Shown one piece after another: positions 4,098 to 25,724 of a stretch of 28,150 bases of DNA. The translations under genes and the position numbers were made by a program. Every line of letters starts with the position of its first letter. The first letter of the stretch is position 1. Source of the stretch: an uncultured Acidimicrobiaceae bacterium (lineage in GTDB: Bacteria > Actinomycetota > Acidimicrobiia > Spongiisociales > UBA5794). The stretch is from contig CAYTWC010000001.1 of NCBI GenBank assembly GCA_964441975.1, positions 1 to 28,150 of the forward strand. Direction: 5' to 3'. The notes under the pieces are model-generated. The model worked only from the letters and a program-made list of their open reading frames with translations, was not told the DNA's origin and did not search any database.

Positions 4098-4283
4098 GCA
4101 GTCACCGGTCTTTCAGCCACTATCGGCAGCAGCCGGCCGTTTCTTGAATCTCCGGTTCCGACTCAGCGGGTGGGGCGGGTCCCGCCGATCGACCGCACGA
4201 CGACAGCAGCCGCGTACACTCGAATCCGCGCTCGGAGAACCAAACATCGTGCGACACCCGCCGACGTCGACCGAGGACACTAC

Positions 4284-4790: not shown

Positions 4791-4794
4791 TCGT

Positions 4795-4818
4795 CCGGGG
4801 CCGTCGAACGGCTCCCGG
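4795..4818. terminator. Hairpin between convergent gntK and cyclase-STAND gene
   Basis: ccggg-gccgt / loop cga / acggc-t-cccgg: a 10-bp stem with one bulge filling the 33-bp intergenic gap. Confidence 0.5.
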
Positions 4819-4823
4819 GCGCT

Positions 4824-7800: not shown

Positions 7801-8663
7801 AAGACGCGTGCTCCGTCGCCCAGGGCGGCCGGTACGACGTTGCACAGGTATCCCTGATGATGGTTGAGCAGCTGGAGCAGTCGGGCCATGGGTGAGCCAC
7901 CGTCGACACCGGGCATCTCGGCGAGCTCGACGAAGACGGACACGACATCGCGGAACTCCCCGGTGTTCGGTGCGTTCTCGAGCGTCGAAGGGTAGAAAGC
8001 GAGGGGACTGGGCGGTCCCGACCAATTCGACGGATGCGGTGGGCGCTCGACGTCGAAGGTCCTCTCGACGGTTCGGAACCCCTGACCAACCTCCGTCGAC
8101 ATCCGAAGATCGAGATGCATCGCCGAAGTCGGACCCACGACGATTGCGCCTCCAGGCGCCAGACTCTCACCGGCGAGTGCCTCGGAAACCGCGGAGCCAT
8201 AGTAGGTATAGGCACCGTTCTGCCTTCCACGACCATCTTGAGCGCGCCAGATCCTCCACTCGATGGATCCCGCCCCGACCGCACACCTCACCGTGAGCGC
8301 CGCGGAACCCGCTGGGGTCGGCAGCTCACCGAGCGATGCCAGCAATCTCAGTACATCGTCCGCGGCCATTGCCGCTCTGTGGACGGTGTCGTCGAGGTCC
8401 CCGAGAAACACAGCGACGACTCCATCACCCGCGAACTCCGAGACGAAGCCACCCCACGCGGCGACGCGGTCGACCATTGGGGAGAAGACGGTCTTGAGTA
8501 TCTGAGCTTGCGCCTCAGCACCCGCCGTACCGAAACGTTGGAGGCTGGCTGACAACTCAGTCGAACCTTCAGCATCGATGACGAGGGCCGCTCCGGTCGA
8601 GCGCCCTACGAACTGTCCATCGGCGGCCATCTGGGCGAGATGCTCGGGTACCAACCTGTGCAT
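4824..8663 (-). CDS. Tandem class III nucleotidyl cyclase + STAND (AAA_16-like) ATPase + TPR protein (soluble-AC/ADCY10-like architecture), divergent copy
   Basis: C1: LVIDAEGST...SEFAGDG. C2: RDVVSVFVEL...FWGAP...AGVTRSTVFAGFVG...YTCIGSGVNLAARM. FVGRRSEL; Walker A GEAGSGKS (7308-7331); wHTH-like KFRNLLVRDAAY; C-terminal TPRs (RALNNLGSAL, AISKGNLGA, AYDLHGVG). Confidence 0.92.
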   Translation of the reverse strand: MHRLVPEHLAQMAADGQFVGRSTGAALVIDAEGSTELSASLQRFGTAGAEAQAQILKTVFSPMVDRVAAWGGFVSEFAGDGVVAVFLGDLDDTVHRAAMAADDVLRLLASLGELPTPAGSAALTVRCAVGAGSIEWRIWRAQDGRGRQNGAYTYYGSAVSEALAGESLAPGGAIVVGPTSAMHLDLRMSTEVGQGFRTVERTFDVERPPHPSNWSGPPSPLAFYPSTLENAPNTGEFRDVVSVFVELAEMPGVDGGSPMARLLQLLNHHQGYLCNVVPAALGDGARVFAFWGAPTSRERDIGYALRFLADLRSEVAASIRAGVTRSTVFAGFVGTPRHESYTCIGSGVNLAARMCSIAEWGEIRVDGEIRARLDEPWVLDALGPVTYRGFADPVPTHRVVHVPPVRRADPFRGAFVGRRSELDELEDLIAPLWSDRSAGVIAVVGEAGSGKSRLVGTLRERLETRTPPATWLEAQADQIRSQPLATLRDALAGYFGRPGEVESADRLEGFFNQLAVDAPLLSDEIKRSRRILGELLDLDDGYDGAVGDTIDPEVKFEVLVSAVESLVLAIEQSGPVVIYVIDGQWVDSGTAEILSRLQQDLSDRRIAVLIETRTAATPVPVDHLVKLEPLESAEISELAERLLGRPPDEELVEFVMDRSDGNIFYARQLLEYVKRTSLADNRLDLPGTDVPLDLRRVLVARLDELPAAVRRTVQVASVLGREIDMAVLAVMTEEPERVDVDAKTAVEARLWDLDDSGMSAKFRNLLVRDAAYGMLPHAEARILHESAARAIEQVHGSHERTAAELAFHYDRAGLASDAVAHYVIAAQAASSRYANAEAIDHLDRALALVGDDAPDRRFEILRLRFGVHDIVGDRNAQEFDLAAMEQMESTDPTIAAELSILRARLLSAHGSYAEAEEVVARALAAPDASLHVSDRASLAFLRAQLARHRGHNDRASSHAEEARSLYGEIGDASGVASVDDFLGGIAWDGGDFERAVSLHRSAADMFGSLRNVTDEIRALNNLGSALFALGDYSEARTMHEAGAARSADIGYLMGEGDHKDNAGGTAWAVGDYGVAMELYSAALAIRERMDDAWGIAISKGNLGATRRAMGYPDDALILYREALAIDRRIGRRRGEAYDLHGVGVCLLDLERYNLASEALGEAADLRTELGEHHLANESRAACATAMLRRGDVADAVALVDSVLEDEGDDMFEGAVETTVSLLRCIEVIDHVDPERATQLRRLTAERVAARAARISDPSHRRSYLESIEAHRTAAGIVGN

Positions 8664-8669
8664 GGACCG

Positions 8670-8675
8670 ATACTA
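8670..8675 (-). promoter_or_regulatory. Putative -10 element (TAGTAT) for a leaderless transcript of the 8663 gene
   Basis: TANNNT hexamer on the minus strand 6 nt upstream of ATG 8663; no SD visible. Confidence 0.4.
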
Positions 8676-8849
8676 CAAACCGCCGGCCCGGCTGCCGAAG
8701 AAGCGCATCACCGTATTGGTACGCCAAGTGGAACGGATGCCAATGGACGAGCACTCTACGTAGTCGTCGAGTGACTTTTCCCCTTACGGACAGTGTTCGG
8801 TGCGACTACTGTGTGATGAGGCGGAAACTTTAGGGAAGGCGCTCGATAC

Positions 8850-11231
8850 ATGTCCAAGATCCATTCTTCGCGTCGCATGCGCTGGCTCATCGTTGCCGCA
8901 CTGGCGGCGATTCTCACCATCGGAACCATCACAATCGGCATTGCGAGCTCGGGATCGCCCGATGAGATCCGGCTTGTTCTCGACCACGGCACGAGCGAGT
9001 TCCAGTACGGATCGGAACGACAGAAGATTCGCACCGGTCACAACCAATGCAACGCAAATCCTGACAAGTATGGGGCCGGTCTCGTCACCGTCGAAACCGG
9101 GGCATACAGCTGGCACCACAAGCCGGTCGACGGAAAACTCGGCCTCGTCAATGGTGGTCTCGGCGTCAGCGCGACCGGATACTGGTGGGAGATCGCATGT
9201 GGCAAGATCGACTACTGGGGATCAGGCAAGTCCGAGTCCATCTCATTCGGAGTCGGACCCGCGATCAACAACCAAGTATTCACCTACGTCGACTTCGACT
9301 TGAGTGCGAAGCACGACTCCAGAGTGCGATTCGACTTCTATCAGGGTGACACGATCGTAGGAACCCAGATCACCGATCTCGAAAGCAGCGCAAGACACTC
9401 AGAGTCGAACAAGGGACACGACTGGCACCACGACAAGTACCGAGTCCTTGCGTTCCCGACCGCACCCGACGGTCCGCCGACAATGACGCCCCCGGAAACC
9501 ATCGTGCCGTTCGATCGGATCGTGGTATCCGCAGCTAAGGGTGCGGTGTCGGTCGAGGGCGGATCAAACTGGGGCAAGGAGTACAACAACTCGGACAAGG
9601 GACGCCCGACCGTCTTTCATCTGACGACGTCGATCGCAGAGATTTCTGTGGATGCATCGGTTCTCGGGTACCCGGACGACGATCTCGGCTTCGTGGAAGC
9701 AGGAACGACGCTTGACTGGAAGTACGCCGTCACGAACACAGGTGATCTCCCACTGACGAACATCAACGTCATCGACAGCACCGGACTGACCATCTCCGGA
9801 CCGTCCGGCGACGACGGTGACAACATTCTGTCCGCCGCCGAGACCTGGTACTACACGGCTTCGAGCCCTGCGGTCATGAGTGCACCGGGAGGCGGCGGGG
9901 AGACCCACGAGATCACGGCCACCGGCCAGTCGGCGGATGACGGTGTGTCTGCGACAGACGAGATCACCTACTTCGGAATGTCAGCATCGATCGAGATGGA
10001 CAAGACGACGGAGGGATCCGATGACGGAGGCGTCTACTCGGGGCCGGGAGACGACGTGCTGATCAACGCCGGCGACACCGTCACGTGGACCTATCACGTC
10101 ACCAACACCGGAAATGTCCCTCTGACCATTTCCGTCGAGGACAACCCCGAGGGGTCGGCGAGCTGCCCATCGGGTTCACTCGCACCGGGGGCATCGGTGG
10201 ACTGCTCGCTGACCGCAACCGCGGACGAGAGCCCTGGCGAAGCGCTTGCGGACGGGACGTATGAGGACGGATACTCCAATTCAGCGATCGCAACCGGCAC
10301 GCACGGGCCGACCGAAACCAGCGTTGAATCGACAAGCGACGAATCAGGCTATTTCGGTATGAATCGATCCCTCTTCATCGAGGTGACGAACAACGGTGTT
10401 GGGACACCTCCCGTCGTATCCGATCCGGAGGTCGTCTGGACGGTCTTCGCACGGAACGACGGCAACGTCGAGGTCGAGGTGATCGTCGCGGAGGAGAACG
10501 TTCCTGACGGTGCGAGTCCGAATCAATGTGACATCGCCGAATCGCTCCTCCCGGGGGAATCCGACTCCTGTGAGATTCGGACGCCTGCAGTGGACGGTGA
10601 ACAAACGACGACGTTCACGGTTCGCGGAGAAGATCCGCTCGGCATGGTGATCGAAGAGACCAGCGGTACCGTCGGCTACTACGGCGGTCTCGCTTGCGGT
10701 GAAAGCGCTGAGAGCGGTGGACCTGATCTCACCGACACGCCGTTGGCTGGCTTCTTCGTCGGGCCATCGACGAAGGACGATTCGACGGACTGCGCTGTCG
10801 CTGTCGATATCGTCACCGAGAACGACCCCGAAGAGCCGGAACAGTCGGTGTTCCTCGGTGCACCCGTCGGCTACAGCTGGGTCGGCGTGACCGGGTTGCT
10901 GACGATCGAGTGGGACATCGAAGATCCGGCCGACGGTCTCAGGCCGACGCTCCAGACCAACGGTCTTGTGACGGAGGAGGTACCGGTGTGTGCGGGGGAT
11001 GTCGCGGTTGAGATCGCCGAACCCGCCCCGGGTGACTTCATGTACACGTTGATCGACAACCCGGTCGGTGACGGGAGCTATCCGAATGCGACCGGCGGAG
11101 GTGATGTCTGTCTGGTACTCCACACCACGCGGACGATCAACTACGACAACGGTGGAACACCGGAGGTGAAGACACTCACGACTGAGGTCTTCTACATCTT
11201 CAACGATCCACGACTCAGCCGCCCACGCTGA
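8850..11231 (+). CDS. Large secreted or membrane-tethered protein with three tandem DUF11/DUF7507-like Ig-fold repeats
   Basis: N-terminal RRMRWLIVAALAAILTIGTITIGIASS. Repeats GTTLDWKYAVTNTGDLPLTNINVID, GDTVTWTYHVTNTGNVPLTISVED and EVVWTVFARNDGNVEV, each ending in Y[FY]G. Acidic, Cys-containing C-terminal domain. SD-like GGAAGG upstream. Confidence 0.85.
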   Translation: MSKIHSSRRMRWLIVAALAAILTIGTITIGIASSGSPDEIRLVLDHGTSEFQYGSERQKIRTGHNQCNANPDKYGAGLVTVETGAYSWHHKPVDGKLGLVNGGLGVSATGYWWEIACGKIDYWGSGKSESISFGVGPAINNQVFTYVDFDLSAKHDSRVRFDFYQGDTIVGTQITDLESSARHSESNKGHDWHHDKYRVLAFPTAPDGPPTMTPPETIVPFDRIVVSAAKGAVSVEGGSNWGKEYNNSDKGRPTVFHLTTSIAEISVDASVLGYPDDDLGFVEAGTTLDWKYAVTNTGDLPLTNINVIDSTGLTISGPSGDDGDNILSAAETWYYTASSPAVMSAPGGGGETHEITATGQSADDGVSATDEITYFGMSASIEMDKTTEGSDDGGVYSGPGDDVLINAGDTVTWTYHVTNTGNVPLTISVEDNPEGSASCPSGSLAPGASVDCSLTATADESPGEALADGTYEDGYSNSAIATGTHGPTETSVESTSDESGYFGMNRSLFIEVTNNGVGTPPVVSDPEVVWTVFARNDGNVEVEVIVAEENVPDGASPNQCDIAESLLPGESDSCEIRTPAVDGEQTTTFTVRGEDPLGMVIEETSGTVGYYGGLACGESAESGGPDLTDTPLAGFFVGPSTKDDSTDCAVAVDIVTENDPEEPEQSVFLGAPVGYSWVGVTGLLTIEWDIEDPADGLRPTLQTNGLVTEEVPVCAGDVAVEIAEPAPGDFMYTLIDNPVGDGSYPNATGGGDVCLVLHTTRTINYDNGGTPEVKTLTTEVFYIFNDPRLSRPR

Positions 11232-11241
11232 CACCAGGAGG

Positions 11242-14200
11242 TCAAGGAACGTTCCGTACACCCAGTGTGCGGAACGTTTCTTGCGCCTCCGACCGCTGAC
11301 CGTCCAAGACCGCCGAACTGTCGATGCGGTCGAGTGTCGCCACGAGTAGTGCTGCCTCGTAGGTGTCGCCGCGATCGCTGGCTTCGGCGAGACCACCCTT
11401 GAGGACGGACATGGCCTCATCGTGTTGTCCGTCGGCGTCGAGGATGGAGCCCCTGACTCTGGCGAGAAGCGGTGCGAAGAAGTCGAGGTGCTCGTCGGGA
11501 GCCTCGCCGGTTGCGCGGTCGAGTATGCGCAGTCCGGCAGCGGGGTCACCCGAGCGGCAAGCGGCGTCGGCGAGATGGATCGAGGCCTCAAGTATGTCGG
11601 CATCGAGTCTCAGACCGCGCGAGGCAGCTATGGCTGATTCGAGGTACTGCGACGATTGGTCGAGTTCCCCGCGCAGTCCGAACATCCTGCCGATCAGGAT
11701 GTCGACAAAAGCGATCCCCTCATCGAACCCAGATGCCGCATGTACTCGCCTCGCCGAGAACAAGGGTTCCTCGGCTTCATCAAACCGACCCTGATTCACG
11801 AGCACCTCGCCGATGTTCGAATCAGCGCGGGCGACCTCGACGACGTTGCCAACGCGATCGAGAGCGGTGCGGCCCTCTCGATAGAACTCAAGCGCCCCTA
11901 CCCAGTCACCCCGCCAGTAGGCCATGACTCCGAGGTTCTGCGCAACCTGTCCCTCCTGGTCAAGTCGCCCGTGTTCCCGGTAGATCTCCAAGGATCGCTC
12001 GGAATTGGTCGCGGCCGTCAGATCTCCGAGCATCACGAGCGAGTAGTCCAGTACAGAGAGCGCCCTGGCGAGAGCAATGTCGTCGTCGACCGACTGCGCA
12101 GCCTCGATCGCAGCAAGTGCTGCTTTCCGCGCCTCGGTCGGTTTCTGCTGCGCCTGTCTGATGACCGCTTCCATCCCGATCGCGTCAGCCCTCTGCTTGC
12201 GCATCGCCGGGCTGTCGATCGACTCTGCGAGATTCCGTGCTCGGGTCGCCTCGCTGAGCGCGGCCGAATATCTGCCCGCCCGTTCCTTTGCACTTGCGCG
12301 TTTGAGAAGGATCGCAGCCTGCTGCTCGGGATCGTCGCGAGCCCATTCCGACGCGCGTCGATAGGCGTCGAGCGCGGCATCGAACTGGCCGAGCTGCTCA
12401 CGGACATCCCCGAGATCCGTCCATACCTTCATCCGGGACGCTTCATCCACCGCGGCGAACCGTCGTGCGGCTTCAAGGGCCCGCTCGTACTGGGCTGCAG
12501 CCGACGCGTTCGCGAACAACGCCCTGTTACGGTCGGCTGCCATACGGGCATACCGCCAGGCTGCCTCGTGATCACCGGCCTCTGAGAAATGGAGGGCGAC
12601 CATGTCGGCAACGGATTCCTCATCACCTGAGGCACTCGCCAGCAAGAGCGTTCCCGCGGCAGCGTGCAGTTCCCGTCTCAGGCGATACGACAGACCCTCG
12701 TAGGCCATATCACGGACCATGGCGTGTCGGAACTCAAGCCGGGATGAACCGTCCCCATCGATGAACGCCGCCAGGGTGGTTCGCGTTGCCTCGTCGAGAT
12801 CGATCTCCTGGCTCCGGAGAAGGTCCCTCGCCACGCTGACCCGGAAGCTGCGCCCGAGCACAGACAGGTACCGCAATACTCGCCGAGCCAATGGAGGGAG
12901 GTTGTCGATCTGACTGCCGACCACGCCGTCGAGCGAGGTGGGCAACGATGACACATCGCCCGATTCCCGCACGATGGTGACGAGTTCCTCGACGAACAGT
13001 GGGCTACCGCCGGAGCGGCGCGCGATCGTTGCGACGATGTCCGGACGAAACGGAGCGGCCTCGGTGGCCGCGTGGATCAATTCGGTGACCTCGTCGTCTT
13101 CGAGCGGTCCCAAGGGGAGTTCGTCGGTCCCTTCGACGACTCCCTCCCTGCTCGTCGCCAACACGATCCACGGCCGTTCGGACAGATCCGAAGTGTCGGA
13201 GGCGATCCGCTCGAGGAGGGATGTGGTGGCGGGATCTGCCCAATGGATGTCGTCGGCGAACACGACGAGCCCCTCGGGGTACACCGTCGCGAGCAGCCTT
13301 GTGACCACGTCGACCGTGCGTTCGTGACGGAATCTCGGCTCGATCGCAAGCGTTTCGGGGGTCGGATCCAACTCGATGTGTGCGACGTCGCCGATCAGCG
13401 GTGCGAACGGTGCAAGATCCGGTGCGACCGTCGATATCGCGAGCCGAATCTGCTCTGCCATCTCGGGCTGCGGTCCACGATCGACTCCGAGGGTTGTACG
13501 GATCGCATCGCGCCATGACCGATACGGGTTCGCGGACCCGTATGGCTCGGACCGGACATCGATCCGCGGCACCGCGAGGTCGGCGACCGCTTCGGATACC
13601 AGACGGGTCTTGCCGATACCGGTCGGACCGGTCACAGTCACACCGGTTCCCGAGCTTGCGAGCACCTCCGAGATTCGTGCGAGCTCGACGGGCCGGCCGA
13701 CCATCGGTGAACGGTTCTCGAGGGAATCGCGCGTTCCGGATTCATCGCCGATCGCGTACGCCTGCACCGGCGCCGATTTGCCTTTGACGTGAAAAGGTTC
13801 GACCGGGGCCGTGCTGAAGAGCGTTGACGATCCGTCGATGACCGGCCGCGTCGCGAACACCTCACCCACCGGACTGGCGGCCATGAGCCTGGCAGCGAGG
13901 TTCACCGTGTCGCCCATGATGGTGTATGTCGAGCGCTCGGACGTGCCGACCTCGCCGGCGAACACGTCGCCCCGATTGACCCCAACACGGGTCTGGAGCG
14001 GAGTCGAGACGTCGACGATGCGACGTGCGGCTCGGAGCATGCGGCCGTCCTCGTCGACCCGGGTCCTCGGGACACCCGCCACCAGGATGATCTTGAACGA
14101 GTTCCGGTCGACGTCGGTAGCAAGAAACGTGACTTCTTCCTCGTCCGCGATCGCCATCACGGCCGACACGAACTCGGCTATGGCGGCCGCGGTGGCCGCG

Positions 14201-14991
14201 ATCCCTGTGGTTACGACGAGATCGTCGACCCCCGCCGCCTTGACGAATGCGACCGTCGCCTGCCGGTGCTCCGAGTCGGGCGTTCCCGCACCGAGGAACG
14301 GACGCAACGCCGTCGGGATGAGGTCGTCCACCTCCCCACCGGTTGACCGATCACGACCCGTTGACTCGATCGGCGGAACGCGCGGTGTCCTCCAACGCAG
14401 CAGCCATCCGTCCCCCTTGGCCGCGGATGCCGAACCGGAAGGCAACAGGGCCCGGGTGGAATCACTGACGACGATCTCGCCCGCCTCCGCGATGCCCTCC
14501 ATTTCGGTGACCCGAGAAGCAGCGGCGCCGCCGACGATCAACTCCACGTGGGATCCATCGGCTCGGAACAGATGAACCGGACCGGTGTGCACACCTTGGG
14601 ACATCCGCAGCGGAACCCGACCGACGGAGGTCGGGATCTCGGCAGCGATCCGCAACGCAGACCGCATCTCGACGGTCGCCGACGCTGCCTGCACTGCATG
14701 ATCGTCTCCCTCGAACAGGAGCAGGAGCGCGTCGCCACCGTACTTGACGAGGCTCCCACCTCGTCGCGCCGCGAGGTCCAGCATGTCGCCGAACACCCGA
14801 TTGAGGATCTCGGTCAGCTCCTCGGCACCAACTCGGCCGAGTGTCGCAAGTTTCTCTGAAAGCGCTGTGAACCCTGAAATGTCGACAAAGCACAGCGTGC
14901 CCTCGACTGTCTTCCATATCTGTTCCGGATCGGTACCCCAGTCGCGCAGGTGTACCGACGCGAAACGATCGAGATTCGGGGTGAGATCCAC
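11242..14991 (-). CDS. Tandem class III nucleotidyl cyclase + STAND ATPase + TPR protein (soluble-AC-like architecture)
   Basis: C1: LCFVDISGFTALSEKL...GAEELTEILN...VKYGGDALL. C2: RQATVAFVK...GVNRGDVFAGEVG...YTIMGDTVNLAARLM. MVGRPVEL; Walker A GPTGIGKT; Walker B FADDIHWAD; EFRHAMVRDMAY; C-terminal TPRs. GTG start with SD GGAAGG. Confidence 0.94.
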   Translation of the reverse strand: MDLTPNLDRFASVHLRDWGTDPEQIWKTVEGTLCFVDISGFTALSEKLATLGRVGAEELTEILNRVFGDMLDLAARRGGSLVKYGGDALLLLFEGDDHAVQAASATVEMRSALRIAAEIPTSVGRVPLRMSQGVHTGPVHLFRADGSHVELIVGGAAASRVTEMEGIAEAGEIVVSDSTRALLPSGSASAAKGDGWLLRWRTPRVPPIESTGRDRSTGGEVDDLIPTALRPFLGAGTPDSEHRQATVAFVKAAGVDDLVVTTGIAATAAAIAEFVSAVMAIADEEEVTFLATDVDRNSFKIILVAGVPRTRVDEDGRMLRAARRIVDVSTPLQTRVGVNRGDVFAGEVGTSERSTYTIMGDTVNLAARLMAASPVGEVFATRPVIDGSSTLFSTAPVEPFHVKGKSAPVQAYAIGDESGTRDSLENRSPMVGRPVELARISEVLASSGTGVTVTGPTGIGKTRLVSEAVADLAVPRIDVRSEPYGSANPYRSWRDAIRTTLGVDRGPQPEMAEQIRLAISTVAPDLAPFAPLIGDVAHIELDPTPETLAIEPRFRHERTVDVVTRLLATVYPEGLVVFADDIHWADPATTSLLERIASDTSDLSERPWIVLATSREGVVEGTDELPLGPLEDDEVTELIHAATEAAPFRPDIVATIARRSGGSPLFVEELVTIVRESGDVSSLPTSLDGVVGSQIDNLPPLARRVLRYLSVLGRSFRVSVARDLLRSQEIDLDEATRTTLAAFIDGDGSSRLEFRHAMVRDMAYEGLSYRLRRELHAAAGTLLLASASGDEESVADMVALHFSEAGDHEAAWRYARMAADRNRALFANASAAAQYERALEAARRFAAVDEASRMKVWTDLGDVREQLGQFDAALDAYRRASEWARDDPEQQAAILLKRASAKERAGRYSAALSEATRARNLAESIDSPAMRKQRADAIGMEAVIRQAQQKPTEARKAALAAIEAAQSVDDDIALARALSVLDYSLVMLGDLTAATNSERSLEIYREHGRLDQEGQVAQNLGVMAYWRGDWVGALEFYREGRTALDRVGNVVEVARADSNIGEVLVNQGRFDEAEEPLFSARRVHAASGFDEGIAFVDILIGRMFGLRGELDQSSQYLESAIAASRGLRLDADILEASIHLADAACRSGDPAAGLRILDRATGEAPDEHLDFFAPLLARVRGSILDADGQHDEAMSVLKGGLAEASDRGDTYEAALLVATLDRIDSSAVLDGQRSEAQETFRTLGVRNVP

Positions 14992-15074
14992 AGCGCCTTC
15001 CAGGTCCGAGGAACAGCTGACACACTACCCAGCCCACCGACGGGACCCAGCCTGTCTGCCTCTCGATTCGGTGG

Positions 15075-16274
15075 CTAGGCGTCCCTCACCATGACATCGA
15101 CGATGTGTTCTGCGATTGCAAGGCTCGATGTCGCGCCAGGCGACGGCGCGTTCCGAACGGTCACGATCCCGTCGTTGACGTTCACGCGGAAGTCGTCCAC
15201 CAGCGATCCGTCCCTGTCAAGCGCCTGGGCGCGGACACCGGTGCGACCTCGAATGATGTCCGCTCGCCCGATCGCTGGGACATAGCGCGAGGCGAGCTTC
15301 ATGTACGCCGAGGTCGAGAGCGAGCCCCACATCTCGGATGCCCCGGCCCGCCAGTGCTTCCCTGCCATCCGCCAGAAGCCCGGCCAACCGAGCGTCCTAC
15401 CGAGGTCCGCAAAGCCGAGATCCGACCTCTTGTAGCCCTCCCGCTTGAGAGCGAGCACGGCGTTCGGTCCCACCTCGAGTCCACCCGAAACATTCCGGGT
15501 GAAGTGCACCCCGAGGAACGGGTATCGCGGGTCGGGCACGGGATAGATCATCCCCCGCACCAGATCCTGCTTGTCCGCAGCAACGGTCATGTACTCACCA
15601 CGGAAGGGGACGATCCTTGGCGATCGTTGCCCGTCGACCGGCTCAGAAACGGTGTCGGACTGCAGACCCGCACAGACGACCAATCGACCCACCGTATGAA
15701 CGGTTTCCCGGGTGATGAGGTCGATCGAGCCGCCCCGCCGGGTGATCCTTTCGATCCTCGAACCAAGGACCACACGCCCACCGCGTCTCTCGACGCCGGC
15801 CGCAAGAGATCGCGCGATCGCTGGGTAGTCGGTGATGGCGGTGGCCGGCGAATGGAGCGCTGCCACACCGGCCCCATGGGGTTCGATGTCCGCGATCCCC
15901 GACGGACCGAGGCGGACGAGACCCGGCACACGGTTCTCACGTGCCGTCTTCTCAAGCGCGTCGAGCCGCCCGATCTCGGTTTCATCGACAGCGACGACAA
16001 GCTTTCCACACGCTTCAAACGGCAGCTGGTGCTCGGCGCAGTAGTCTCGGAGGAGGGCCCTCCCTCTCGAGCAGAGCTCAGCCTTGAGACTGCCGGGCTG
16101 GTAGTAGATCCCTGCGTGGACAACGCCTGAGTTGTGGCCTGTCTGATGGATTCCGACCGCAGCCTCCTTGTCGAAGACAGTGATCTCGGAATCTGGGAAG
16201 CGACGTCCAAGTTCTCTCGCAACCGCGAGACCGATGATGCCGGCGCCGATGACGCCGATCCTGTCACTCTTCAT
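15075..16274 (-). CDS. lhgO: L-2-hydroxyglutarate oxidase (FAD-dependent)
   Basis: GAGIIGLA (FAD), QTGHNSGVVHAGIYYQPGSLKA.LC, PFRGEY, IYPVPDPRYPFLGVHFT, GPNAV, GVRAQA, NAPSPGATSSLAIAEHI. Confidence 0.93.
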   Translation of the reverse strand: MKSDRIGVIGAGIIGLAVARELGRRFPDSEITVFDKEAAVGIHQTGHNSGVVHAGIYYQPGSLKAELCSRGRALLRDYCAEHQLPFEACGKLVVAVDETEIGRLDALEKTARENRVPGLVRLGPSGIADIEPHGAGVAALHSPATAITDYPAIARSLAAGVERRGGRVVLGSRIERITRRGGSIDLITRETVHTVGRLVVCAGLQSDTVSEPVDGQRSPRIVPFRGEYMTVAADKQDLVRGMIYPVPDPRYPFLGVHFTRNVSGGLEVGPNAVLALKREGYKRSDLGFADLGRTLGWPGFWRMAGKHWRAGASEMWGSLSTSAYMKLASRYVPAIGRADIIRGRTGVRAQALDRDGSLVDDFRVNVNDGIVTVRNAPSPGATSSLAIAEHIVDVMVRDA

Positions 16275-16292
16275 TGGTGCACCGGACTCGGC

Positions 16293-17645
16293 TCAAACGC
16301 GTTCTCTTGAATGATCATCACCCACCACAACGACATCGGAAGCATCAACGGTAGCCCCGAACTCGCGCGGTTGATCGCCGGCCCGTGCGGCGCCGACCAC
16401 AAGGTAGGTCGGCACGACACCGACCCCCCGCATCGCAATCGGCCCGCGCTCTTCGACCTCGAACATCGGGACGATGAGGTCGCGCGTCTGCTCGCTCACG
16501 TGGACCCGTCCACGGATGCCGTATTCCTCGAGTCGCGACGCAACGTTCACGGTGTCCCCCCAGATGTCATAGGCGAATTTGCGGGTTCCGATCACACCAC
16601 CGGCGACAGGCCCCGAGTGGACGCCCACCCGCACAGCGAGATCCGGGAAACGCTCAGACGCCGCCGTGACGTCGATGATTGCGAGCGCGAGGTCCACCAC
16701 CTTCTGGGCGTGGTCGGGCATCGCCTCGGGGAGTCCTCCAACGGCCATGTAGGAATCACCCACTGTCTTGATCTTCTCGAGACCCCTGTCGTCGACAAGA
16801 TCGTCGTACGCCGAGAACAGCTCTCCGAGCATCGAGATGACCGTATTCGCGGAGAGCGTGGCTGCAAGCGGTGTGAACCCGATGATGTCAGCGAACATGA
16901 CCGAAACGGATGGAAAGTCATCCGCGATCTGGGTTTCGCCGTTCCTGAGACGATACGTCACTGATTCAGGAAGGACGTTGAGTAGCAGACGCTCGGACTC
17001 TGCGCGTTCGTCCTCGAGATGCTGCGCCTGCTCCTCGATCACGAGTCGTTGGTGCCACGACCGACGCCGGTTCCGTTCGATGAGCCGCAGCCCCACAAGG
17101 CTTGCGATCCCTGCAACGACGTAGAAGAAGCAGTCCACGAGGAGGCTCCCGTCTCCTGCATACGTCGCAACGGCCGCGGCGAGCCCGAGTCCGATCACAA
17201 CGGTTCGCACGGCCGCGTGCACGAAGCGGGTCCGTGACACGAAGCCGAACAGAAACAGCAGCAGGATCGCTGCGATCGCGTAACCATGCAGAAAGGCCGA
17301 GGAAGCACCAAGCGCCAGGATCACCAATCCGTTCGCTGACGTCAAGAACGTCGCAAGCCCGTGCTGCCGATTCATCGTGGACGCCCACCGAGCTGCGATG
17401 AAGCAGGCCGTGCCTACGGCGGCCATCGTCAACCCGACCGTGACCGCTCGTTCGCTTGATATGTCGGTACCGCGTGGGAGCACGAAAGCCGCGATCGCCC
17501 AGATGATCGCTGTCGCACCGGTGATGATTCGGTACCCGGCCAGGCCGTCCGCACCTTCTTCGCGCTGATAGGCAGCTTCGAGTTCGTCGTCGAGAAACCT
17601 GAGCGTGAACGGTTGGACCGCACCGCGACGGAGCATCTCGGTCAC
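16293..17645 (-). CDS. 6-TM class III adenylate cyclase, Rv1625c/mammalian-like
   Basis: FTLRFLDDELEAAY, six hydrophobic segments, helical domain ESERLLLNVLP, then VMFADIIGFT, KIKTVGDSYM, RVGVHSGPV, AYDIWGDTVNVASRL. Both metal Asp, adenine-selecting Lys/Asp and catalytic Asn/Arg are present. Confidence 0.95.
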   Translation of the reverse strand: MTEMLRRGAVQPFTLRFLDDELEAAYQREEGADGLAGYRIITGATAIIWAIAAFVLPRGTDISSERAVTVGLTMAAVGTACFIAARWASTMNRQHGLATFLTSANGLVILALGASSAFLHGYAIAAILLLFLFGFVSRTRFVHAAVRTVVIGLGLAAAVATYAGDGSLLVDCFFYVVAGIASLVGLRLIERNRRRSWHQRLVIEEQAQHLEDERAESERLLLNVLPESVTYRLRNGETQIADDFPSVSVMFADIIGFTPLAATLSANTVISMLGELFSAYDDLVDDRGLEKIKTVGDSYMAVGGLPEAMPDHAQKVVDLALAIIDVTAASERFPDLAVRVGVHSGPVAGGVIGTRKFAYDIWGDTVNVASRLEEYGIRGRVHVSEQTRDLIVPMFEVEERGPIAMRGVGVVPTYLVVGAARAGDQPREFGATVDASDVVVVGDDHSRERV

Positions 17646-17790
17646 GTCAGGGCCGCGACCGATCCACTCGACAACTCGGGGTGTCGACGAGTCACCATCT
17701 ACCCATTATCGCGAGAATTTTGGCCGGGTGGAGCCGGAGCCGAACCGGTCAGGCGAGCCAACCTTGACCAACCCGATCAGGCTCTCACCC

Positions 17791-19524
17791 TCACGCTATG
17801 GACCGAAGATGCTCCCTGGGGAGGCTCGGCTCCTCGTCGATCGGTTCGTGTGTCGCACGACCCGGGAGCGTGACCGAGAAACAGGCTCCGCCGAGCAGCT
17901 CGGATGTCCGGTACCCGGTCGAGCCGCCGTGGGCCTCGGCGATTGCGGCGACGACCGCCAAACCGATTCCTGACCCCGGGGTGGTTGCGTTGAGCCTGTT
18001 CGGGCCCCGATCGAAGCGATCCCAGATCCTGACCTCGTGCCGACGAGGGACACCCGGCCCGTCATCGTGCACCTCGAAGGTCACGTCGGAACCATCCGAG
18101 ATGATCCGCATGATTCGCTCGGGACCCCCGTATCTGGCCGCGTTGGTCAGAAGATTGACGAGGACCTGCTGCATCCGGGCGTGATCGGCGAAGACGACGA
18201 GGTCGTCGCTTCCCTCGATCTTGACCGTTTCGACCCCGATGTTGGACGCAAGCACGGACGCCTCCGTGAGCTCTTTAACGGATACAGCTTCGACGTCGAG
18301 ATCGAGACCGCCGTCGGTTCCGCGTGCCAGCATGATCAGATCCGAGACGATCGTGGACATGTAGTCGGCCTGCTCCTGGATGATCCCGACCATTTCGACC
18401 TGATCAGGTTCGAGACGATCCCTGTCCTCGCTGAGGATGTCCACATAGCCGACCACAGCCGTGAGCGGCGTACGAAGCTCGTGAGAGATTGTCGTCACCA
18501 ACAGGTCGCGCTGCTGTTCGATCGTCGCGCGGTTGTCGAGGATCAGGAGCGCCTGGCGTGCGATGACCAGCAACCCCACGAGAATCATCGCCCCGAGCAG
18601 AATGCGGTTGCCCGCGGCATCCGCACCGGTGGCCAGCTCGACCATGAACACAGCGAGCATCATGAGCGCCGGGACGTTGGGCGCGATCTGAGTCCACAGC
18701 GGTGGATTGCGGTCGGCATATTCACGCGTAACGGATGGCTTGCCCACAAAGGAAGCCGATGCCACGAAGAAGCCCATAGCGAGGAGATTGATCCAGTACA
18801 GCGGATTCGCATCCTGGAATGAACCTGACTGCGCCGACGCAAACAGGCTGATGTCGCCGAGGACCTGGAAGGATACGGCGACCGCGAACAGCGCGACCCG
18901 AACGTCGAACCGATGACGCGATCGTCGCAAGAGCACGGTCATCGCGACCGTCAGGACGACCAGGTCGAGGAACGGGTAGAACGCACCGATGGTTCTCGTG
19001 AGCAGCGACGCATCGGCGAGGCCAGACGTCATGTCCGACAGGAGAAGGACCCAGGCGAGCGCGGCGATCGAGACCGCCCCGATCAGACCGTCGAGGAACA
19101 TTCGAGCGCGTTGGGTCGTGGATCCTTCAGCGTGGGGAAGGGCCGACGCCCCGAGAATGACCAACACATACGTCGCGAGGAAGAACAGGTCGGTCCACCC
19201 GAACGCGGGAGCGTCGCCCTGGACGAAGTAGACGACGGCGACGACGAACACCCCGAGGGACGCCGATGCCATGCCGAAACCGATGAGCGACCAACCCGTC
19301 CGTTCGCGACCGTCGAGGGTACGAGCCCGGGAGATGAAGAGTCCGCCGGCGACACCTGCACCGAACATGACTCCGATAGCACCGGCAGCGTCGGCTGCAT
19401 CCTTCGAGCCGAGGATCGTGATCAACCCACACAGGGCGAGAAAGGCGAACACGCCGAGCGCAAACCGTCCGAACGGGACGGTGGTCGTCGATTTGCCGCG
19501 ATGAAAGGTGGTTGTCTGCGTCAC
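17791..19524 (-). CDS. Sensor histidine kinase with a large polytopic (about 9 TM) membrane input domain
   Basis: H-box TISHELRTPLTAVVGY; N-box QVLVNLLTNAARYG; G1 VHDDGPGV; G2 GSGIGLAVV. Membrane region with PAFGWTDLFFLATY, FLDGLI, FYPFLDL and LGDISLF motifs. No receiver domain. Confidence 0.93.
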   Translation of the reverse strand: MTQTTTFHRGKSTTTVPFGRFALGVFAFLALCGLITILGSKDAADAAGAIGVMFGAGVAGGLFISRARTLDGRERTGWSLIGFGMASASLGVFVVAVVYFVQGDAPAFGWTDLFFLATYVLVILGASALPHAEGSTTQRARMFLDGLIGAVSIAALAWVLLLSDMTSGLADASLLTRTIGAFYPFLDLVVLTVAMTVLLRRSRHRFDVRVALFAVAVSFQVLGDISLFASAQSGSFQDANPLYWINLLAMGFFVASASFVGKPSVTREYADRNPPLWTQIAPNVPALMMLAVFMVELATGADAAGNRILLGAMILVGLLVIARQALLILDNRATIEQQRDLLVTTISHELRTPLTAVVGYVDILSEDRDRLEPDQVEMVGIIQEQADYMSTIVSDLIMLARGTDGGLDLDVEAVSVKELTEASVLASNIGVETVKIEGSDDLVVFADHARMQQVLVNLLTNAARYGGPERIMRIISDGSDVTFEVHDDGPGVPRRHEVRIWDRFDRGPNRLNATTPGSGIGLAVVAAIAEAHGGSTGYRTSELLGGACFSVTLPGRATHEPIDEEPSLPREHLRSIA

Positions 19525-19564
19525 CCATCGTTTATCGGCGTGATCTCCGGTCAGGTGTAGGAGT

Positions 19565-20839
19565 TCAGCGCTCGATGTTCACAGTGCCCGACGTTGTCAG
19601 ATCGATCTGCCACTCGATCGGTGTCACGAGTCCATCGATATTGCGCACGAGCGCATCCATGAACCGTTTCAGATCATCGTCCGTCTGGAAGGTCGTCGTC
19701 GTGAATCGAATGCCGTCGGTGCCCTTCGGTACGACAGGGAATCCCGAGACGTTGACATAGAAGCCGTCTTCCATCATGCGTCGGGCATACTCGATCGCAT
19801 TGCCGAGCTCTCCGACCCTGATGAACCACAACGGTGTCCTCTCGAGAGACAGGGCAGGAAGCTGTGCATCCACGATCCGCCGACGGACGTATTCGATCTT
19901 GGCCATCAGCGATTTCTCTCGTTCAAGCCGTTCGTCAGACAGGTGAAAATCGGCAGCGGCAACAGCCGCTCCGAGCTCGGCGGGATGGAGCGGTCCGGAG
20001 AACGTGAACGTGGCTCCTGCGAGCAGAACCTTCTGGGTCAGCTTCTCATTCGGAAGCACGAGCACCGCACCGCCGGCTCCCCACGACTTGGCCAACGACC
20101 CGATAATGATCACACGATCGTGGTACCCGACCTCGGTGATGACATGACCCACACCGTGGTGACCCTTCCAACCGACGCCATGCGCATCGTCGTAGTACAC
20201 GTGAAGATTCTCGAACTCATCGAGCAGCTCGGCGATCTCATGCACCGGTGCAGTGTCACCGAACATCGAGTAGATGCCATCTGCGAGGTACCAGACACGG
20301 GCGTGGGTGCGGGCCTCGGCTTCGAGAACTCGACGAAGCTCGCCGACATCGTTGTGACCTACGTGGCGAACGTCTGCGCCGAAACCCCTGAGGATGCCGG
20401 ATGTCAGCTGTACCGACGCGTGCACCTGATGATCGAGGAGCACCAAGTCACCAGGGCTGACCAACACCGGTAAGACGGACAGGTGACCGAGCGTCGTGGT
20501 GGTCGGTACGAGGATCTCGCCTTGATCGAAGATCTTGCCGAGCCGCTCCTCAAGATCCGTGTAGAGATCGATCGAGGTGTACGCCGCCGATGACGAGAAC
20601 ACCGGACCGTATTGGTCGAGTGCGGCCTTCGCACCGTCGATCAGGCGCTGGTCGGTATTGAGTCCCAGGTACGCACAGGAGCCGTAGTTGAGGAGCTCGC
20701 GACCACGCACGGTTATCGTGCGACCTTCGCTGGACTGGTCCTCCACCCGGAGGCGGATGAGACCGCCTCGCACGGCTTGGCCGAGACGACCTTCAACGAA
20801 GTCGATCGTGCTTTCGCGTGACGACACCTTCGAATCCAT
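19565..20839 (-). CDS. PLP-dependent alpha-oxoamine synthase family protein (BioF/KBL/SPT/CqsA superfamily), not canonical BioF
   Basis: NYGSCAYLGL, DHQVHASV, HND, DGIYSMFGD, DDAHG, PLP lysine in GSLAKSWG, FTFSGPL, FPVVPKG..GIRFT. Start moved from 20977 to ATG 20839 (AGGAG upstream). Confidence 0.88.
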   Translation of the reverse strand: MDSKVSSRESTIDFVEGRLGQAVRGGLIRLRVEDQSSEGRTITVRGRELLNYGSCAYLGLNTDQRLIDGAKAALDQYGPVFSSSAAYTSIDLYTDLEERLGKIFDQGEILVPTTTTLGHLSVLPVLVSPGDLVLLDHQVHASVQLTSGILRGFGADVRHVGHNDVGELRRVLEAEARTHARVWYLADGIYSMFGDTAPVHEIAELLDEFENLHVYYDDAHGVGWKGHHGVGHVITEVGYHDRVIIIGSLAKSWGAGGAVLVLPNEKLTQKVLLAGATFTFSGPLHPAELGAAVAAADFHLSDERLEREKSLMAKIEYVRRRIVDAQLPALSLERTPLWFIRVGELGNAIEYARRMMEDGFYVNVSGFPVVPKGTDGIRFTTTTFQTDDDLKRFMDALVRNIDGLVTPIEWQIDLTTSGTVNIER

Positions 20840-21004
20840 GGCTTGTCCGCGTCTCCTGACCTCGCTTCTGCGGAATGGCGACCCTACCGCGAATGTATCC
20901 ATGTCCGTGGGATTACGGCGAAACGGTCGCCTTGTGGGCGCCACGGTCGCCCCTACACTCCTGTGACCGCAGCCCACGTGACGGCATGCCCATCAGGAGT
21001 TCCG

Positions 21005-21808
21005 ATGCCCCCTATGTTCGGACAGGTCGAGACCGTCAGCTTGCTCGGTCAGTCGATGGTCAGGGTGGTACTCGGAGGCGACGGGCTCGAAGCCTTCGAG
21101 CCGACGCAGTACACCGACGAGTACGTCAACGCGTTGTTTCTCCCGGACGACGCGCCGTATGCACCGCCGTTCGACCTCGAGGAGGCTCGGTCCCTCGAAG
21201 CCGATCTTCGGCCTCGTCCGCGTCGGTTCACCGTCCGTGCGTGGGACGCCGACCTCCGGTTGATGACGATCGACTTCGTCACGCACGGTGATGCGGGATA
21301 CGCGGGACGGTGGGCTCAGCAAGCCAGCCATGGCGACCGTCTCCAGATGATCGGTCCCAACGGGTCCTACAGGCCTGACCCTGACGCCGATTGGTATCTG
21401 TTCGGCGGCGACGAGAGTGCCCTGCCTGCGATCAACCGGTCCATCGAAACGGTCCCGCGGGGTCGATCCTGCCATGTCTTCGTGGTCGTGGACGGTGCGG
21501 ATGACGAGTTCGATCTCCGGGCGCCGGCCACCTCCCAGGTTCACTGGCTCCACCGAACTGGCTCCCCGTCTCCTGAGACCCTCCTCGTCGACGCGGTCTC
21601 CGCACTCGATTGGAACCCTGGACTGGTGGATGTGTTCGTCCACGGCGAGGCAGGAGAAGTCCGCTCCACGCGGAGGCACCTGGTCGGCGACCGCGGAATC
21701 GACCGGGCATCGATGTCCATCTCTCCTTACTGGCGTCGCCACCACGACGACGAGGCGTGGCGAGCCATCAAGCGCCAATGGCTCGAGGACCAAGACCGCG
21801 ACGTCTGA
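21005..21808 (+). CDS. Siderophore-interacting protein (FAD-binding ferric reductase, ViuB/YqjH family)
   Basis: MVRVVLGGDGL, DEYVNALF, RRFTVRAWD, IDFVTHGDAG, GPNGSY, LFGGDESALPAI, VHGEAG, SISPYWR. ATG 21005 with SD AGGAG at 20995-20999. Confidence 0.92.
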   Translation: MPPMFGQVETVSLLGQSMVRVVLGGDGLEAFEPTQYTDEYVNALFLPDDAPYAPPFDLEEARSLEADLRPRPRRFTVRAWDADLRLMTIDFVTHGDAGYAGRWAQQASHGDRLQMIGPNGSYRPDPDADWYLFGGDESALPAINRSIETVPRGRSCHVFVVVDGADDEFDLRAPATSQVHWLHRTGSPSPETLLVDAVSALDWNPGLVDVFVHGEAGEVRSTRRHLVGDRGIDRASMSISPYWRRHHDDEAWRAIKRQWLEDQDRDV

Positions 21809-21848: not shown

Positions 21849-23000
21849 CTAGGCGAGGTCGATCAGACCCGACCAGAAGATGTAGCCGGTTCCGGTGTCG
21901 ATGTCGTATCGGTTCCGCAGTGCCAACCGACCGTCGCCGTCGACCTCGAGGACAGCCATCCCGGCGGGACGAGTCAGCCCGTCAGGCGTGAGGACCGGCG
22001 CAATCGATGTACAACACAGAACCCGTCCCGATCGATCGATACCACCGTTCCGTATGTGGACCAGCCCGGGGTCTGCGTGCTGTTCCACTCGGGCGGTCCC
22101 CGTTTCGCCGTCGATCGAGATCACCGCGATGTCGTCCTCGCCTCCGTCGAATACTCGCATGCCGTTCAGCCTGGGTCCGATGCTGCGGTTGGAGACATAG
22201 ACGACGTGCCCACGAGGATGCGCACGGACGAATCCGACTGCTTGCCGATCCGGCGAGGCATCGGCGAGGGTTGAAACGTCGTGCACCGGCTCTGAAGTCA
22301 ATTCGCCGGTCGGGGACAAGCCGAAGACCATCAGTCGGCTCTGACGTTCGACGCCGAGCAATGCGAATCGGCCCGATGGTTCGTAGTCGAAATGCCGTGG
22401 TCCGAACCCGATCCCGCCGTCGCCAAGCGCTGTCACGCCTCGGTGGGTCATCCTTCCGTCGTCGTACTCGAACAAGTGGATGGAGCCGGGATCCTCCGGT
22501 TCACCAGCCCGCGGCTTGGTCCCTCGACAAACGAACAGCGCCGCGTTGTCGTTCGGCGTCGTCAGGACCTGATGGCCATAGAACCCGAACACATTCTCGG
22601 CCTGTGAAACCTCGCTACCGACGCGTCCATCGGCCTTGATCCGGTGCACCGTGAATGCTGACGGAGCGTTGTATGCGATCAGGACATGTCGACCGGCGCG
22701 ATCGAGACTGACATGAATCGGCCGGGACACCAACCTGACCGGGTCCCCGTGCGGGGTCAGGTCACCGTTCCTGCCGATTGCCCATGCCGTGATCCAGTGA
22801 TGGCTGTTGGCGGTGTACGGACCGCCGTCAGAACATGCGACATACAGGAACCGTCGGTCCGCATCCGGCCACGCATACATGGCTGGGGCAGGAAGCCGCA
22901 CGGTCGACCGCACGCCTGCGCTAGCCCTGTCGGAATCGATCTCCCACGTCGACAATTCGTCACCGACGCCAGTGAGATAGACGCTTCTCGCTCCTGACAT
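21849..23000 (-). CDS. Lactonase-family 7-bladed beta-propeller (6-phosphogluconolactonase / cycloisomerase-2 family)
   Basis: RPIHVSLD, YGHQV, GFGPRHFDY, LGVERQ, HPRGHVVYVSNR, GEDDIAV..ID..TG, HIRNGGIDRSGR. Start moved from 23162 to ATG 23000. Confidence 0.85.
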   Translation of the reverse strand: MSGARSVYLTGVGDELSTWEIDSDRASAGVRSTVRLPAPAMYAWPDADRRFLYVACSDGGPYTANSHHWITAWAIGRNGDLTPHGDPVRLVSRPIHVSLDRAGRHVLIAYNAPSAFTVHRIKADGRVGSEVSQAENVFGFYGHQVLTTPNDNAALFVCRGTKPRAGEPEDPGSIHLFEYDDGRMTHRGVTALGDGGIGFGPRHFDYEPSGRFALLGVERQSRLMVFGLSPTGELTSEPVHDVSTLADASPDRQAVGFVRAHPRGHVVYVSNRSIGPRLNGMRVFDGGEDDIAVISIDGETGTARVEQHADPGLVHIRNGGIDRSGRVLCCTSIAPVLTPDGLTRPAGMAVLEVDGDGRLALRNRYDIDTGTGYIFWSGLIDLA

Positions 23001-23122
23001 CGATCCGAATCTCCTGCGCGGCGACGTGCTCGGGTAGCGTAAACGACGCCACCGCGTGCACGGTGTCGCGTCACACCACGGACACGTCCTCAAACGAATC
23101 GCCCCTGTCGGCCCACGAACAG

Positions 23123-23156
23123 GCGCACCCCACCGGCGCTGGCCGGCAGGGTGCGC
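23123..23156 (-). terminator. Long GC hairpin just downstream of the YceI gene
   Basis: gcgcaccc-ca-ccggc / gctg / gccgg-ca-gggtgcgc: 13 bp of pairing with a 2x2 internal loop, 21 nt after the YceI stop. Confidence 0.55.
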
Positions 23157-23177
23157 ACACACCTCGTGGAACGGGGG

Positions 23178-23759
23178 CTAGGAGGCTGGGGAAGCCTGAA
23201 TCTCGATCTCGATCGTGATGTTCTTCGACACCAGGACTCCACCGGTTTCAAGAGCAACGTTCCAGTTGAGATCCCAGTCCGACCGTTGGATTTCGGTCGA
23301 TGCGGAGAACGCCGCCTTGGGATTACCCCATGGATCGTCGATCAATCCGAGGAAATCGAAATCGAGTGCCACTGAGTTCGTGACACCTTTGATCGTCAGA
23401 TCGCCCTCGAGAACCCAGCCACTCCCCTTCGACCGGACCGATGTCGACTCGAAAGTCATGGTCGGATTGTTCTCGACGTCAAAGAAGTCCGCCGACTTGA
23501 GATGACCGTCACGGTCGGCGGCGCCGGTCGAGATCGAATCCGTTGCGATCGACACAGACACGTGACTGTCCAACGGGTTCTCGGCGACGTCGATCGTTCC
23601 CGCAACGTCCGAGAACGAGCCCCGGACCTTCGTCACCATCAGGTGCCGTCCAACGAATTCGACGGACGAGTGTGCCGGATCGATCTGCCACGTGCCGGGA
23701 GCCGGAACGCTGCGGTCATCGACCATTCGGCTGAGCTGGTGGGTAGTCATGGTGGTCAT
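23178..23759 (-). CDS. YceI-family lipid/polyisoprenoid-binding protein
   Basis: GTWQIDPAHSSVEF..RHLMVTKVRGSF, RDGHLKSADFFDVE, GDLTIKGVT, DPWGN, GGVLVS..I.IEIEIQA. ATG 23759 with AAAGG SD; no signal peptide. Confidence 0.93.
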   Translation of the reverse strand: MTTMTTHQLSRMVDDRSVPAPGTWQIDPAHSSVEFVGRHLMVTKVRGSFSDVAGTIDVAENPLDSHVSVSIATDSISTGAADRDGHLKSADFFDVENNPTMTFESTSVRSKGSGWVLEGDLTIKGVTNSVALDFDFLGLIDDPWGNPKAAFSASTEIQRSDWDLNWNVALETGGVLVSKNITIEIEIQASPAS

Positions 23760-23772
23760 GCAATTGCCTTTC

Positions 23773-23831
23773 GTTGCGCTGTGCAATGGTTGCGTGACGC
23801 AACTATACCCTAGATGGTTGCACAATGCAAC
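23773..23831. promoter_or_regulatory. Three GTTGC-N5-GCAA(C) palindromes, probable MarR operators
   Basis: GTTGC gctgt GCAAT (23773-23787); GTTGC gtgac GCAAC (23789-23803); GTTGC acaat GCAAC (23817-23831). They sit in the 93-bp gap between the divergent yceI-like and marR-like genes. Confidence 0.75.
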
Positions 23832-25569: not shown

Positions 25570-25576
25570 ACCTCAC

Positions 25577-25605
25577 ATGCTATCGAACATATGTTCGATT
25601 GTCAA
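25577..25605 (-). promoter_or_regulatory. Housekeeping-sigma promoter TTGACA-N17-TAGCAT for the DUF222-HNH gene (leaderless)
   Basis: On the minus strand, -35 TTGACA is 25605-25600 and -10 TAGCAT is 25582-25577, with a 17-nt spacer. ATG begins 7 nt downstream at 25569. Confidence 0.8.
25582..25599. promoter_or_regulatory. LexA (SOS) box, actinobacterial consensus TCGAAC-N4-GTTCGA
   Basis: Perfect 18-bp palindrome ATCGAACATATGTTCGAT. Confidence 0.9.
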
Positions 25606-25724
25606 GCCGGATTCAGACAGAACGGAGACCTTCGACCAGCATGGGATGCTCACCCGATCGGACCCATTCGATAGCGCCGATTGACGGCTCTACGCTGCGA
25701 GTCCGATCAACGCGTTGGGAAGCT

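Follow-up and report, generated by a model that had tools for sequence, protein, structure and literature searches.

A 28,150-nucleotide stretch of DNA from an uncultured Acidimicrobiaceae bacterium (assembly GCA_964441975.1, contig CAYTWC010000001.1; the whole stretch is called the window below) carries on its minus strand the gene of a divergent putative alpha-oxoamine synthase (AOS), followed by the gene of a polytopic histidine kinase (HK). Judged from gene neighbourhoods in related genomes, AOS and HK form a predicted two-gene unit to which the next three co-directional genes do not belong. The reading that we favour, and to which we give about an even chance, is that the AOS product is a lipophilic aminoketone sensed in the membrane by the ten-helix HK, an arrangement that would be analogous to CqsA/CqsS and not orthologous with it.

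Pairing of synthase and kinase in Acidimicrobiia

The 401 genomes of the class were searched for the AOS subfamily at a threshold of E<=1e-60. It was found in 52 of them, distributed over 27 genera and four families, all in the window's own order. A match to the 335 N-terminal residues of HK was present directly beside the AOS gene in 49 of these 52 genomes; 48 of the adjacent pairs were co-directional, with AOS preceding HK, and one (G023) was convergent. In G363, an exception to adjacency, the AOS gene lies at a contig edge. The pairing persisted down to 36% identity in AOS and 27% identity in the sensor, and in relatives about 70-260 bp separated the ends of the AOS and HK matches, which lay on one strand. 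In the window the intergenic gap is short and a scan detected no terminator-like site in its 40 bp; co-transcription of AOS and HK is presumed.

Three homologue contigs, with AOS identities of 78%, 75% and 52%, carry AOS and then, on the same strand, a HisKA/HATPase kinase gene encoding 565-577 aa; they have this pair in common, while every other neighbour is different. The loci of 20 relatives and the window, each extended by about 8 kb to either side, were compared all against all, and no third conserved gene was found beside the pair. The distribution of the pair within genera was patchy. All named cluster members came from Acidimicrobiia metagenome-assembled genomes, as did the nearest named protein relatives of the window; public metagenomes from many sources carry AOS and HK genes, and public annotations of the pair's proteins are generic.

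The preliminary description of this DNA had proposed a synthase-sensor signal system of five genes: AOS, HK, a class III cyclase with a six-helix membrane anchor (6-TM cyclase), lhgO, and a cyclase-STAND gene. Its gene labels agreed with the Pfam and NCBIfam domain searches, and the open reading frame coordinates gave the same gaps between the five minus-strand genes (40, 145, 18 and 83 bp, from AOS to cyclase-STAND). It had also asked how often this AOS subfamily neighbours sensors, and the count above, 49 of 52 genomes, answers in favour of a polytopic kinase; with AOS locked to such a kinase, the CqsA/CqsS analogy is reasonable as a functional model. The other three genes fell away from the proposed system: the 6-TM cyclase, lhgO and cyclase-STAND genes were conserved neighbours of the pair in none of the 20 relatives' loci.

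In the window, a block of 15.5 kb (2250-17790) separates HK from an amidohydrolase gene (636-2198). It contains a gene for a 615-aa protein of unknown type, two cyclase-AAA_16-TPR genes, a DUF11/DUF7507 secreted-repeat gene, lhgO and the 6-TM cyclase gene. The block is missing from two records of the same genus (L007 and L011, which may come from one genome or from close relatives), in which a homologue of the amidohydrolase gene is found immediately beside HK, in convergent orientation. Because the amidohydrolase gene abuts HK in these records, block 2250-17790 appears to be lineage-specific, and the five-gene run would be a recent juxtaposition; the block looks like a cAMP-rich insertion. 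The comparison thus lends no support to the proposal that the five genes act as one system, nor to sensing of the signal by the cyclase.

Properties of the enzyme and of the sensor

AOS matched the Pfam family PF00155 (Aminotran_1_2) with 78 bits, and no curated NCBIfam model scored above its cut-off. The best model was NF005697 (PRK07505, 'hypothetical protein'), with 261 bits against a cut-off of 342. Scores were 185 bits (cut-off 426) with the BioF model TIGR00858, 157 bits (cut-off 460) with the Kbl model NF005394, 108-145 bits (cut-offs 500-670) with the SPT models NF047599/600/603, 112 bits (cut-off 339) with the ALAS model and 79 bits (cut-off 428) with the CqsA model NF005526. On this last model the genome's own half-length Kbl scored 119, Vibrio Kbl 193 and the true Vibrio CqsA 610 bits. 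When the AOS sequence was searched against solved structures, the matches were weak and nearly equal, with Sphingobacterium SPT at the top (125 bits) and Thermus BioF/Kbl at 119 bits; no CqsA structure was among the matches at 1e-10.

An alignment was made of thirty-nine family members and the E. coli enzymes BioF and Kbl, with BioF residues H133/D204/H207/K236/R361 as a guide. The catalytic residues H140, D217, H220, S248, K251 and R378 were invariant in the AOS family. By this alignment and the PF00155 match, AOS belongs to the alpha-oxoamine synthase superfamily (pyridoxal phosphate, PLP, fold type I) with intact catalytic residues. It shares superfamily and catalytic residues with BioF and Kbl but scores below both cut-offs, and Cys55 of AOS stands where the two E. 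coli enzymes have Asn ('SNDYLGL'). This Cys is a clade marker, present in 36 of the 39 family members and in all 12 of the relatives with a fused GNAT domain that are described below.

AOS is not the housekeeping BioF or Kbl, because a separate kbl-tdh operon is present on contig C184 of G000 (L001:1-1730, where Kbl is clipped by the contig end), because neither bioB nor bioA was found above curated cut-offs anywhere in the genome, and because distribution within genera is patchy. The host genome measures 2.4 Mb in 464 contigs and is 84.5% complete, the window being its contig C1. Biotin auxotrophy of the host is possible, given the lack of bioB and bioA above cut-off in an assembly of this completeness.

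Closest relatives of AOS were sought exhaustively among 1.84 billion representatives. They were uncharacterised proteins with 35-47% identity (270-420 bits), most of the nearest being about 800 aa long, in which AOS at the N terminus is joined to a GNAT domain (Acetyltransf_6/FemAB-like) at the C terminus. Some of these AOS-GNAT fusions bear additional N-terminal modules, either ACBP or FAAL-ACP (ACP, acyl carrier protein). The fusions are widespread in Bacteroidota (including Flavobacterium johnsoniae), Solirubrobacter and Myxococcota, and none reaches the cut-off of a curated NCBIfam model. Their best model, too, is NF005697: ten relatives, fusions among them, scored 229-300 bits, all under its cut-off. 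The fusions share with the window AOS the Cys in 'GSCxYLGL', H119, W183, Y215 and W224, whereas the window AOS stands alone, with no GNAT, ACBP or ACP domain. The ACBP and FAAL-ACP modules of the nearest relatives point to fatty-acyl substrates, and we infer that AOS may use substrates of this class.

In a FastTree phylogeny of 188 rows, the Acidimicrobiia pair family was a clade with 98% support, inside a small stand-alone group whose sister is a clade of 138 rows, most of them fusions. A second tree, computed with IQ-TREE, included five references: E. coli BioF, E. coli Kbl, Vibrio Kbl, Vibrio CqsA (found with the family model, 610 bits on NF005526) and a Sphingomonas SPT whose gene is adjoined by an ACP gene. 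All five lay beyond a 100%-supported branch of 3.95 changes per column from the whole AOS superclade; the CqsA branch was long and its exact position is unsure. Over the two trees, support for the pair-family clade was 97-98%, and 100% when its closest stand-alone relatives were included. Identities of AOS to the references were 22-27%, with 22% for Vibrio CqsA (58 bits) and 25% for Sphingomonas SPT. Judged by this tree and its five references, AOS is placed apart from SPT, BioF, Kbl and CqsA.

Several remarks of the preliminary description are borne out by these results. It had noted SCAYLGL in place of the BioF SNDYLGL and S-L-A-K at the PLP lysine, and both are read in the translation ('GSCAYLGL' and 'GSLAKSWG'); it had noted that biotin genes are lacking among the neighbours, and none is present in the window. 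Its view that AOS is not a close CqsA orthologue agrees with the score on the CqsA model, the identity of 22% and the long branch apart, and the phylogeny that it proposed with BioF, Kbl, SPT and CqsA grouped AOS with none of them.

Some candidates were set aside in the course of these comparisons. Apparent AOS forms of about 800 aa in G018 and G198 had an N-terminal extension that is Arg/Gly-rich, an antisense-like frame and not a domain. In two relatives, frames that run for about 400 codons without a stop precede AOS (L025:7299-8495 and L027:7263-8480) and mimic an 800-aa fusion; their Arg/Gly-rich composition suggests an antisense reading of a gene on the opposite strand. A Vibrio plasmid match (H45) taken as cqsA proved to be kbl-tdh.

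By its domains HK is a class I histidine kinase (HisKA/HATPase_c): its core matched PF00512 with 63 bits and PF02518 with 72 bits, and its translation shows an H-box ('SHELRTPL') as well as the N, G1 and G2 boxes. In the sensor module, hydropathy gave 10 segments and an AlphaFold2 model 10 helices (pLDDT 80.5, pTM 0.77). Both analyses predict that the module lies wholly within the membrane, that its positive loops face the cytoplasm and that its ten helices lead directly into the DHp helix. In an alignment of 32 homologues, D112, D145, D187, D224, R139, Y183 and P184 were invariant, all located in, or at the ends of, predicted helices, and the cytoplasmic motifs RRSxxRFDxR and REYADR were conserved.

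No Pfam or NCBIfam family was found for residues 1-335 (only DUF7937, below threshold at 3e-5, in 4 of the 32 members), and none of the described Pfam membrane sensor domains (MASE, 7TMR-DISM, HisKA_7TM and others) matched them at gathering score. A Foldseek search of the PDB returned nothing at E<=0.001, MFS and rhodopsin rows having TM-scores below 0.4. Matches in AlphaFold DB clusters and in the ESM Atlas showed that the same shape, with TM-scores of 0.65-0.75, forms the N-terminal part of GGDEF, EAL, HD-GYP and histidine kinase proteins, mainly from Actinomycetota. As the shape is common to the N termini of such proteins, the modelled ten-helix module is best described as a putative signalling-type membrane module, and not as a transporter or an enzyme. 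Sensor paralogues with no AOS alongside were present in at least 8 genomes (AOS-less loci of the ten-helix kinase paralogues: L045-L054, from G066, G102, G321, G276, G297, G360, G282, G242, G174 and G098).

The association of the AOS superclade with membrane kinases extends beyond Acidimicrobiia. Of 80 AOS-GNAT loci (L060-L139), 28 had a kinase core no more than 3 kb from the AOS-GNAT gene, and the density of kinase cores was 0.72 per 10 kb near that gene versus 0.16 further out in the same loci; the genomes are related, so that these counts overstate independence. At a metagenomic locus (L059, 3532-11539), the fusion gene is flanked by two polytopic HisKA_3 kinases and a LuxR-type regulator, whereas the partner in the window is one specific ten-helix HisKA kinase. 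Among the deeper stand-alone branches, P0231 and P0216 gave no usable neighbourhood, their contigs being too short or DNA lacking.

A proposed signal read in the membrane, or possible lipid homeostasis

In the favoured reading, AOS would be a cytoplasmic PLP enzyme that condenses an amino acid with a fatty acyl-CoA or acyl-ACP to give a lipophilic alpha-aminoketone. This product would partition into the membrane and be held within the ten-helix bundle of HK, where the four invariant Asp, in or next to predicted helices, are candidate ligands of its protonated amine. Binding would switch the HisKA/HATPase core, which would act on an unlinked response regulator. The AOS-HK logic would work like that of CqsA/CqsS or LqsA/LqsS, with an independent origin. 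We infer both that HK may sense the AOS product and that the pair may have a cell-to-cell role.

The pair resembles CqsA/CqsS (Vibrio), LqsA/LqsS (Legionella) and JqsA/JqsS (Janthinobacterium) in that the gene of an AOS-superfamily enzyme lies beside that of a wholly intramembrane kinase with no periplasmic domain, and in that the synthase is a single gene without tailoring genes. LqsT is an extra sensor without a synthase, and extra sensors of this kind also occur in the HK family. The known hosts are Pseudomonadota, whereas the window comes from an actinomycetote. CqsS, by description, has six helices and is a hybrid kinase with a receiver domain; the window sensor has ten helices and HK lacks a receiver, so that the two are set apart by helix count and domains. 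There is no adjacent regulator comparable to LqsR beside the window pair.

Several observations weigh against the favoured reading. Enzyme and sensor are not CqsA/CqsS homologues at family level, and the IQ-TREE phylogeny places the AOS clade within a group of AOS-GNAT fusions that resemble lipid-building enzymes. Adjacency of the two genes is equally compatible with HK regulating, or feeding back on, membrane-lipid synthesis. In two genomes of genus g41 (G242 and G174), AOS and kinase are both kept but lie on separate contigs, unlinked. No conserved response regulator was found near the pair in the 20 relatives' loci, which leaves the output partner unlinked. No kinase was found beside the deeper stand-alone AOS branches P0214 and P0210. 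The sequencing runs that matched the locus were DNA runs only, with no RNA run among them.

The main rival reading is membrane-lipid homeostasis, a circuit for a structural lipid in place of signalling between cells: AOS would make the long-chain base of a sphingolipid-like or other amino lipid, and HK would monitor the composition of the membrane or the level of that lipid and adjust its synthesis. The closest relatives of AOS argue for it, as their layout, an AOS with a GNAT/FemAB-like N-acyltransferase plus ACBP or FAAL-ACP, suggests the synthesis of N-acylated aminolipids; kinases are enriched beside these fusions as well, and a sensor that is entirely intramembrane would suit the role. 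The window AOS has the fold of bacterial Spt and probably also shares its long-chain acyl substrate, yet it scores below the SPT cut-offs, and the 20 loci hold no conserved gene for an ACP, a ceramide synthase, a reductase, an N-acyltransferase or lipid transport near the pair. A single synthase gene without tailoring genes is the CqsA pattern, and the lone AOS would fit that pattern better. The patchiness of the pair within genera marks it, moreover, as accessory and not as core envelope machinery. On balance we consider lipid homeostasis less likely than the favoured reading, but the strongest of its rivals.

That the two genes merely share a promoter, AOS serving in the catabolism or biosynthesis of an ordinary metabolite and HK sensing, for example, an envelope or ion signal, would be consistent with the HK paralogues that occur without AOS. 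It appears improbable, because the pair is kept while all flanking genes change, in four families and even where identity falls to about 30%, which is hard to explain without functional coupling. Even less weight, and very little in absolute terms, goes to a system of all five genes in which the anchor of the 6-TM cyclase also senses the product. Co-directionality and short gaps in the window speak for it, and so does the reported finding that the 6-TM anchor of a cyclase can serve as a receptor in CqsS-Rv1625c chimeras (PMC4821796). Against it stand two observations: the 20 relatives' loci have none of these three additional genes close to the pair, and the amidohydrolase gene abuts HK in L007 and L011. 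Explanations other than these four, the favoured reading included, are given a similarly slight share.

A more specific form of the favoured reading can be put forward tentatively: a convergent quorum-sensing-type system of Acidimicrobiia, which are abundant and mostly uncultured, in which a stand-alone AOS descended from lipid-building AOS-GNAT ancestors would release a long-chain aminoketone or amino-alcohol autoinducer, the ten-helix kinase, a new type of membrane receptor, would read it through its intramembrane Asp, and the paralogues without a synthase would eavesdrop. No literature linking an oxoamine synthase, a histidine kinase and an autoinducer in this way was found, nor any CqsA literature covering Actinobacteria in such a role, nor any account of this gene pair, in a search that left most subscription journals outside. 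We know of no small-molecule signalling system described for Acidimicrobiia. If the signalling reading is true, the logic of an alpha-oxoamine synthase with an intramembrane kinase arose more than once, a function is proposed for the large uncharacterised AOS superclade (NF005697-like, including the AOS-GNAT fusions), and a first candidate ligand is available for ten-helix modules that also head GGDEF, EAL and HD-GYP proteins. If lipid homeostasis is the true explanation, the pair points to an unknown pathway of aminolipids that has its own membrane sensor. The pair is in either case a concrete two-gene entry point, with one soluble enzyme and one kinase.

Surroundings of the pair in the window

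Coordinates of the pair and of the features around it are collected in the table. AOS is divergent from the gene of a siderophore-interacting protein, and the region between them is a probable divergent promoter region; no sigma-70-like site was detected in it, and the promoter and terminator scan gave nothing beyond shuffled expectation. The minus-strand open reading frame that overlaps the siderophore-interacting protein gene is probably spurious.

Table. Positions of the synthase-kinase pair and neighbouring features in the window
Feature	Position	Strand	Basis and remarks
AOS, alpha-oxoamine synthase, 424 aa	19565-20839	-	first gene of the pair; longest open reading frame extends to 20977
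AOS-HK intergenic gap, 40 bp	19525-19564	-	direct sequence reading
HK, histidine kinase, HisKA+HATPase_c	17791-19524	-	Pfam
Ten-helix membrane sensor module, HK residues 1-335 (predicted)	18520-19524	-	hydropathy, AlphaFold2
Kinase core, HisKA 339-404, HATPase_c 447-554	17791-18519	-	Pfam; receiver domain absent
6-TM cyclase, class III, Guanylate_cyc, about 6 N-terminal hydrophobic helices	16293-17645	-	Pfam, hydropathy
lhgO, L-2-hydroxyglutarate oxidase	15075-16274	-	NF008726, 516 bits against cut-off 299
Cyclase-STAND, Guanylate_cyc+AAA_16+TPR	11242-14991	-	Pfam
Candidate divergent promoter region, AOS and siderophore-interacting protein gene	20840-21020	.	divergent gene order
Siderophore-interacting protein, FAD_binding_9+SIP from residue 61 on	20843-21808	+	domain match; divergent from AOS
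266-aa open reading frame overlapping the siderophore-interacting protein gene	20993-21793	-	no match

Just beyond AOS, the minus strand at 21849-23825 encodes a lactonase-type 7-bladed beta-propeller (PF10282) and a YceI-like protein, which are not conserved beside the pairs of relatives. A DUF222-HNH nuclease gene is present at 24388-25569 (minus strand), and G038 and G110 likewise have a DUF222-HNH homologue near the pair. Another membrane-anchored cyclase-like gene is found on the plus strand at 25269-26762.

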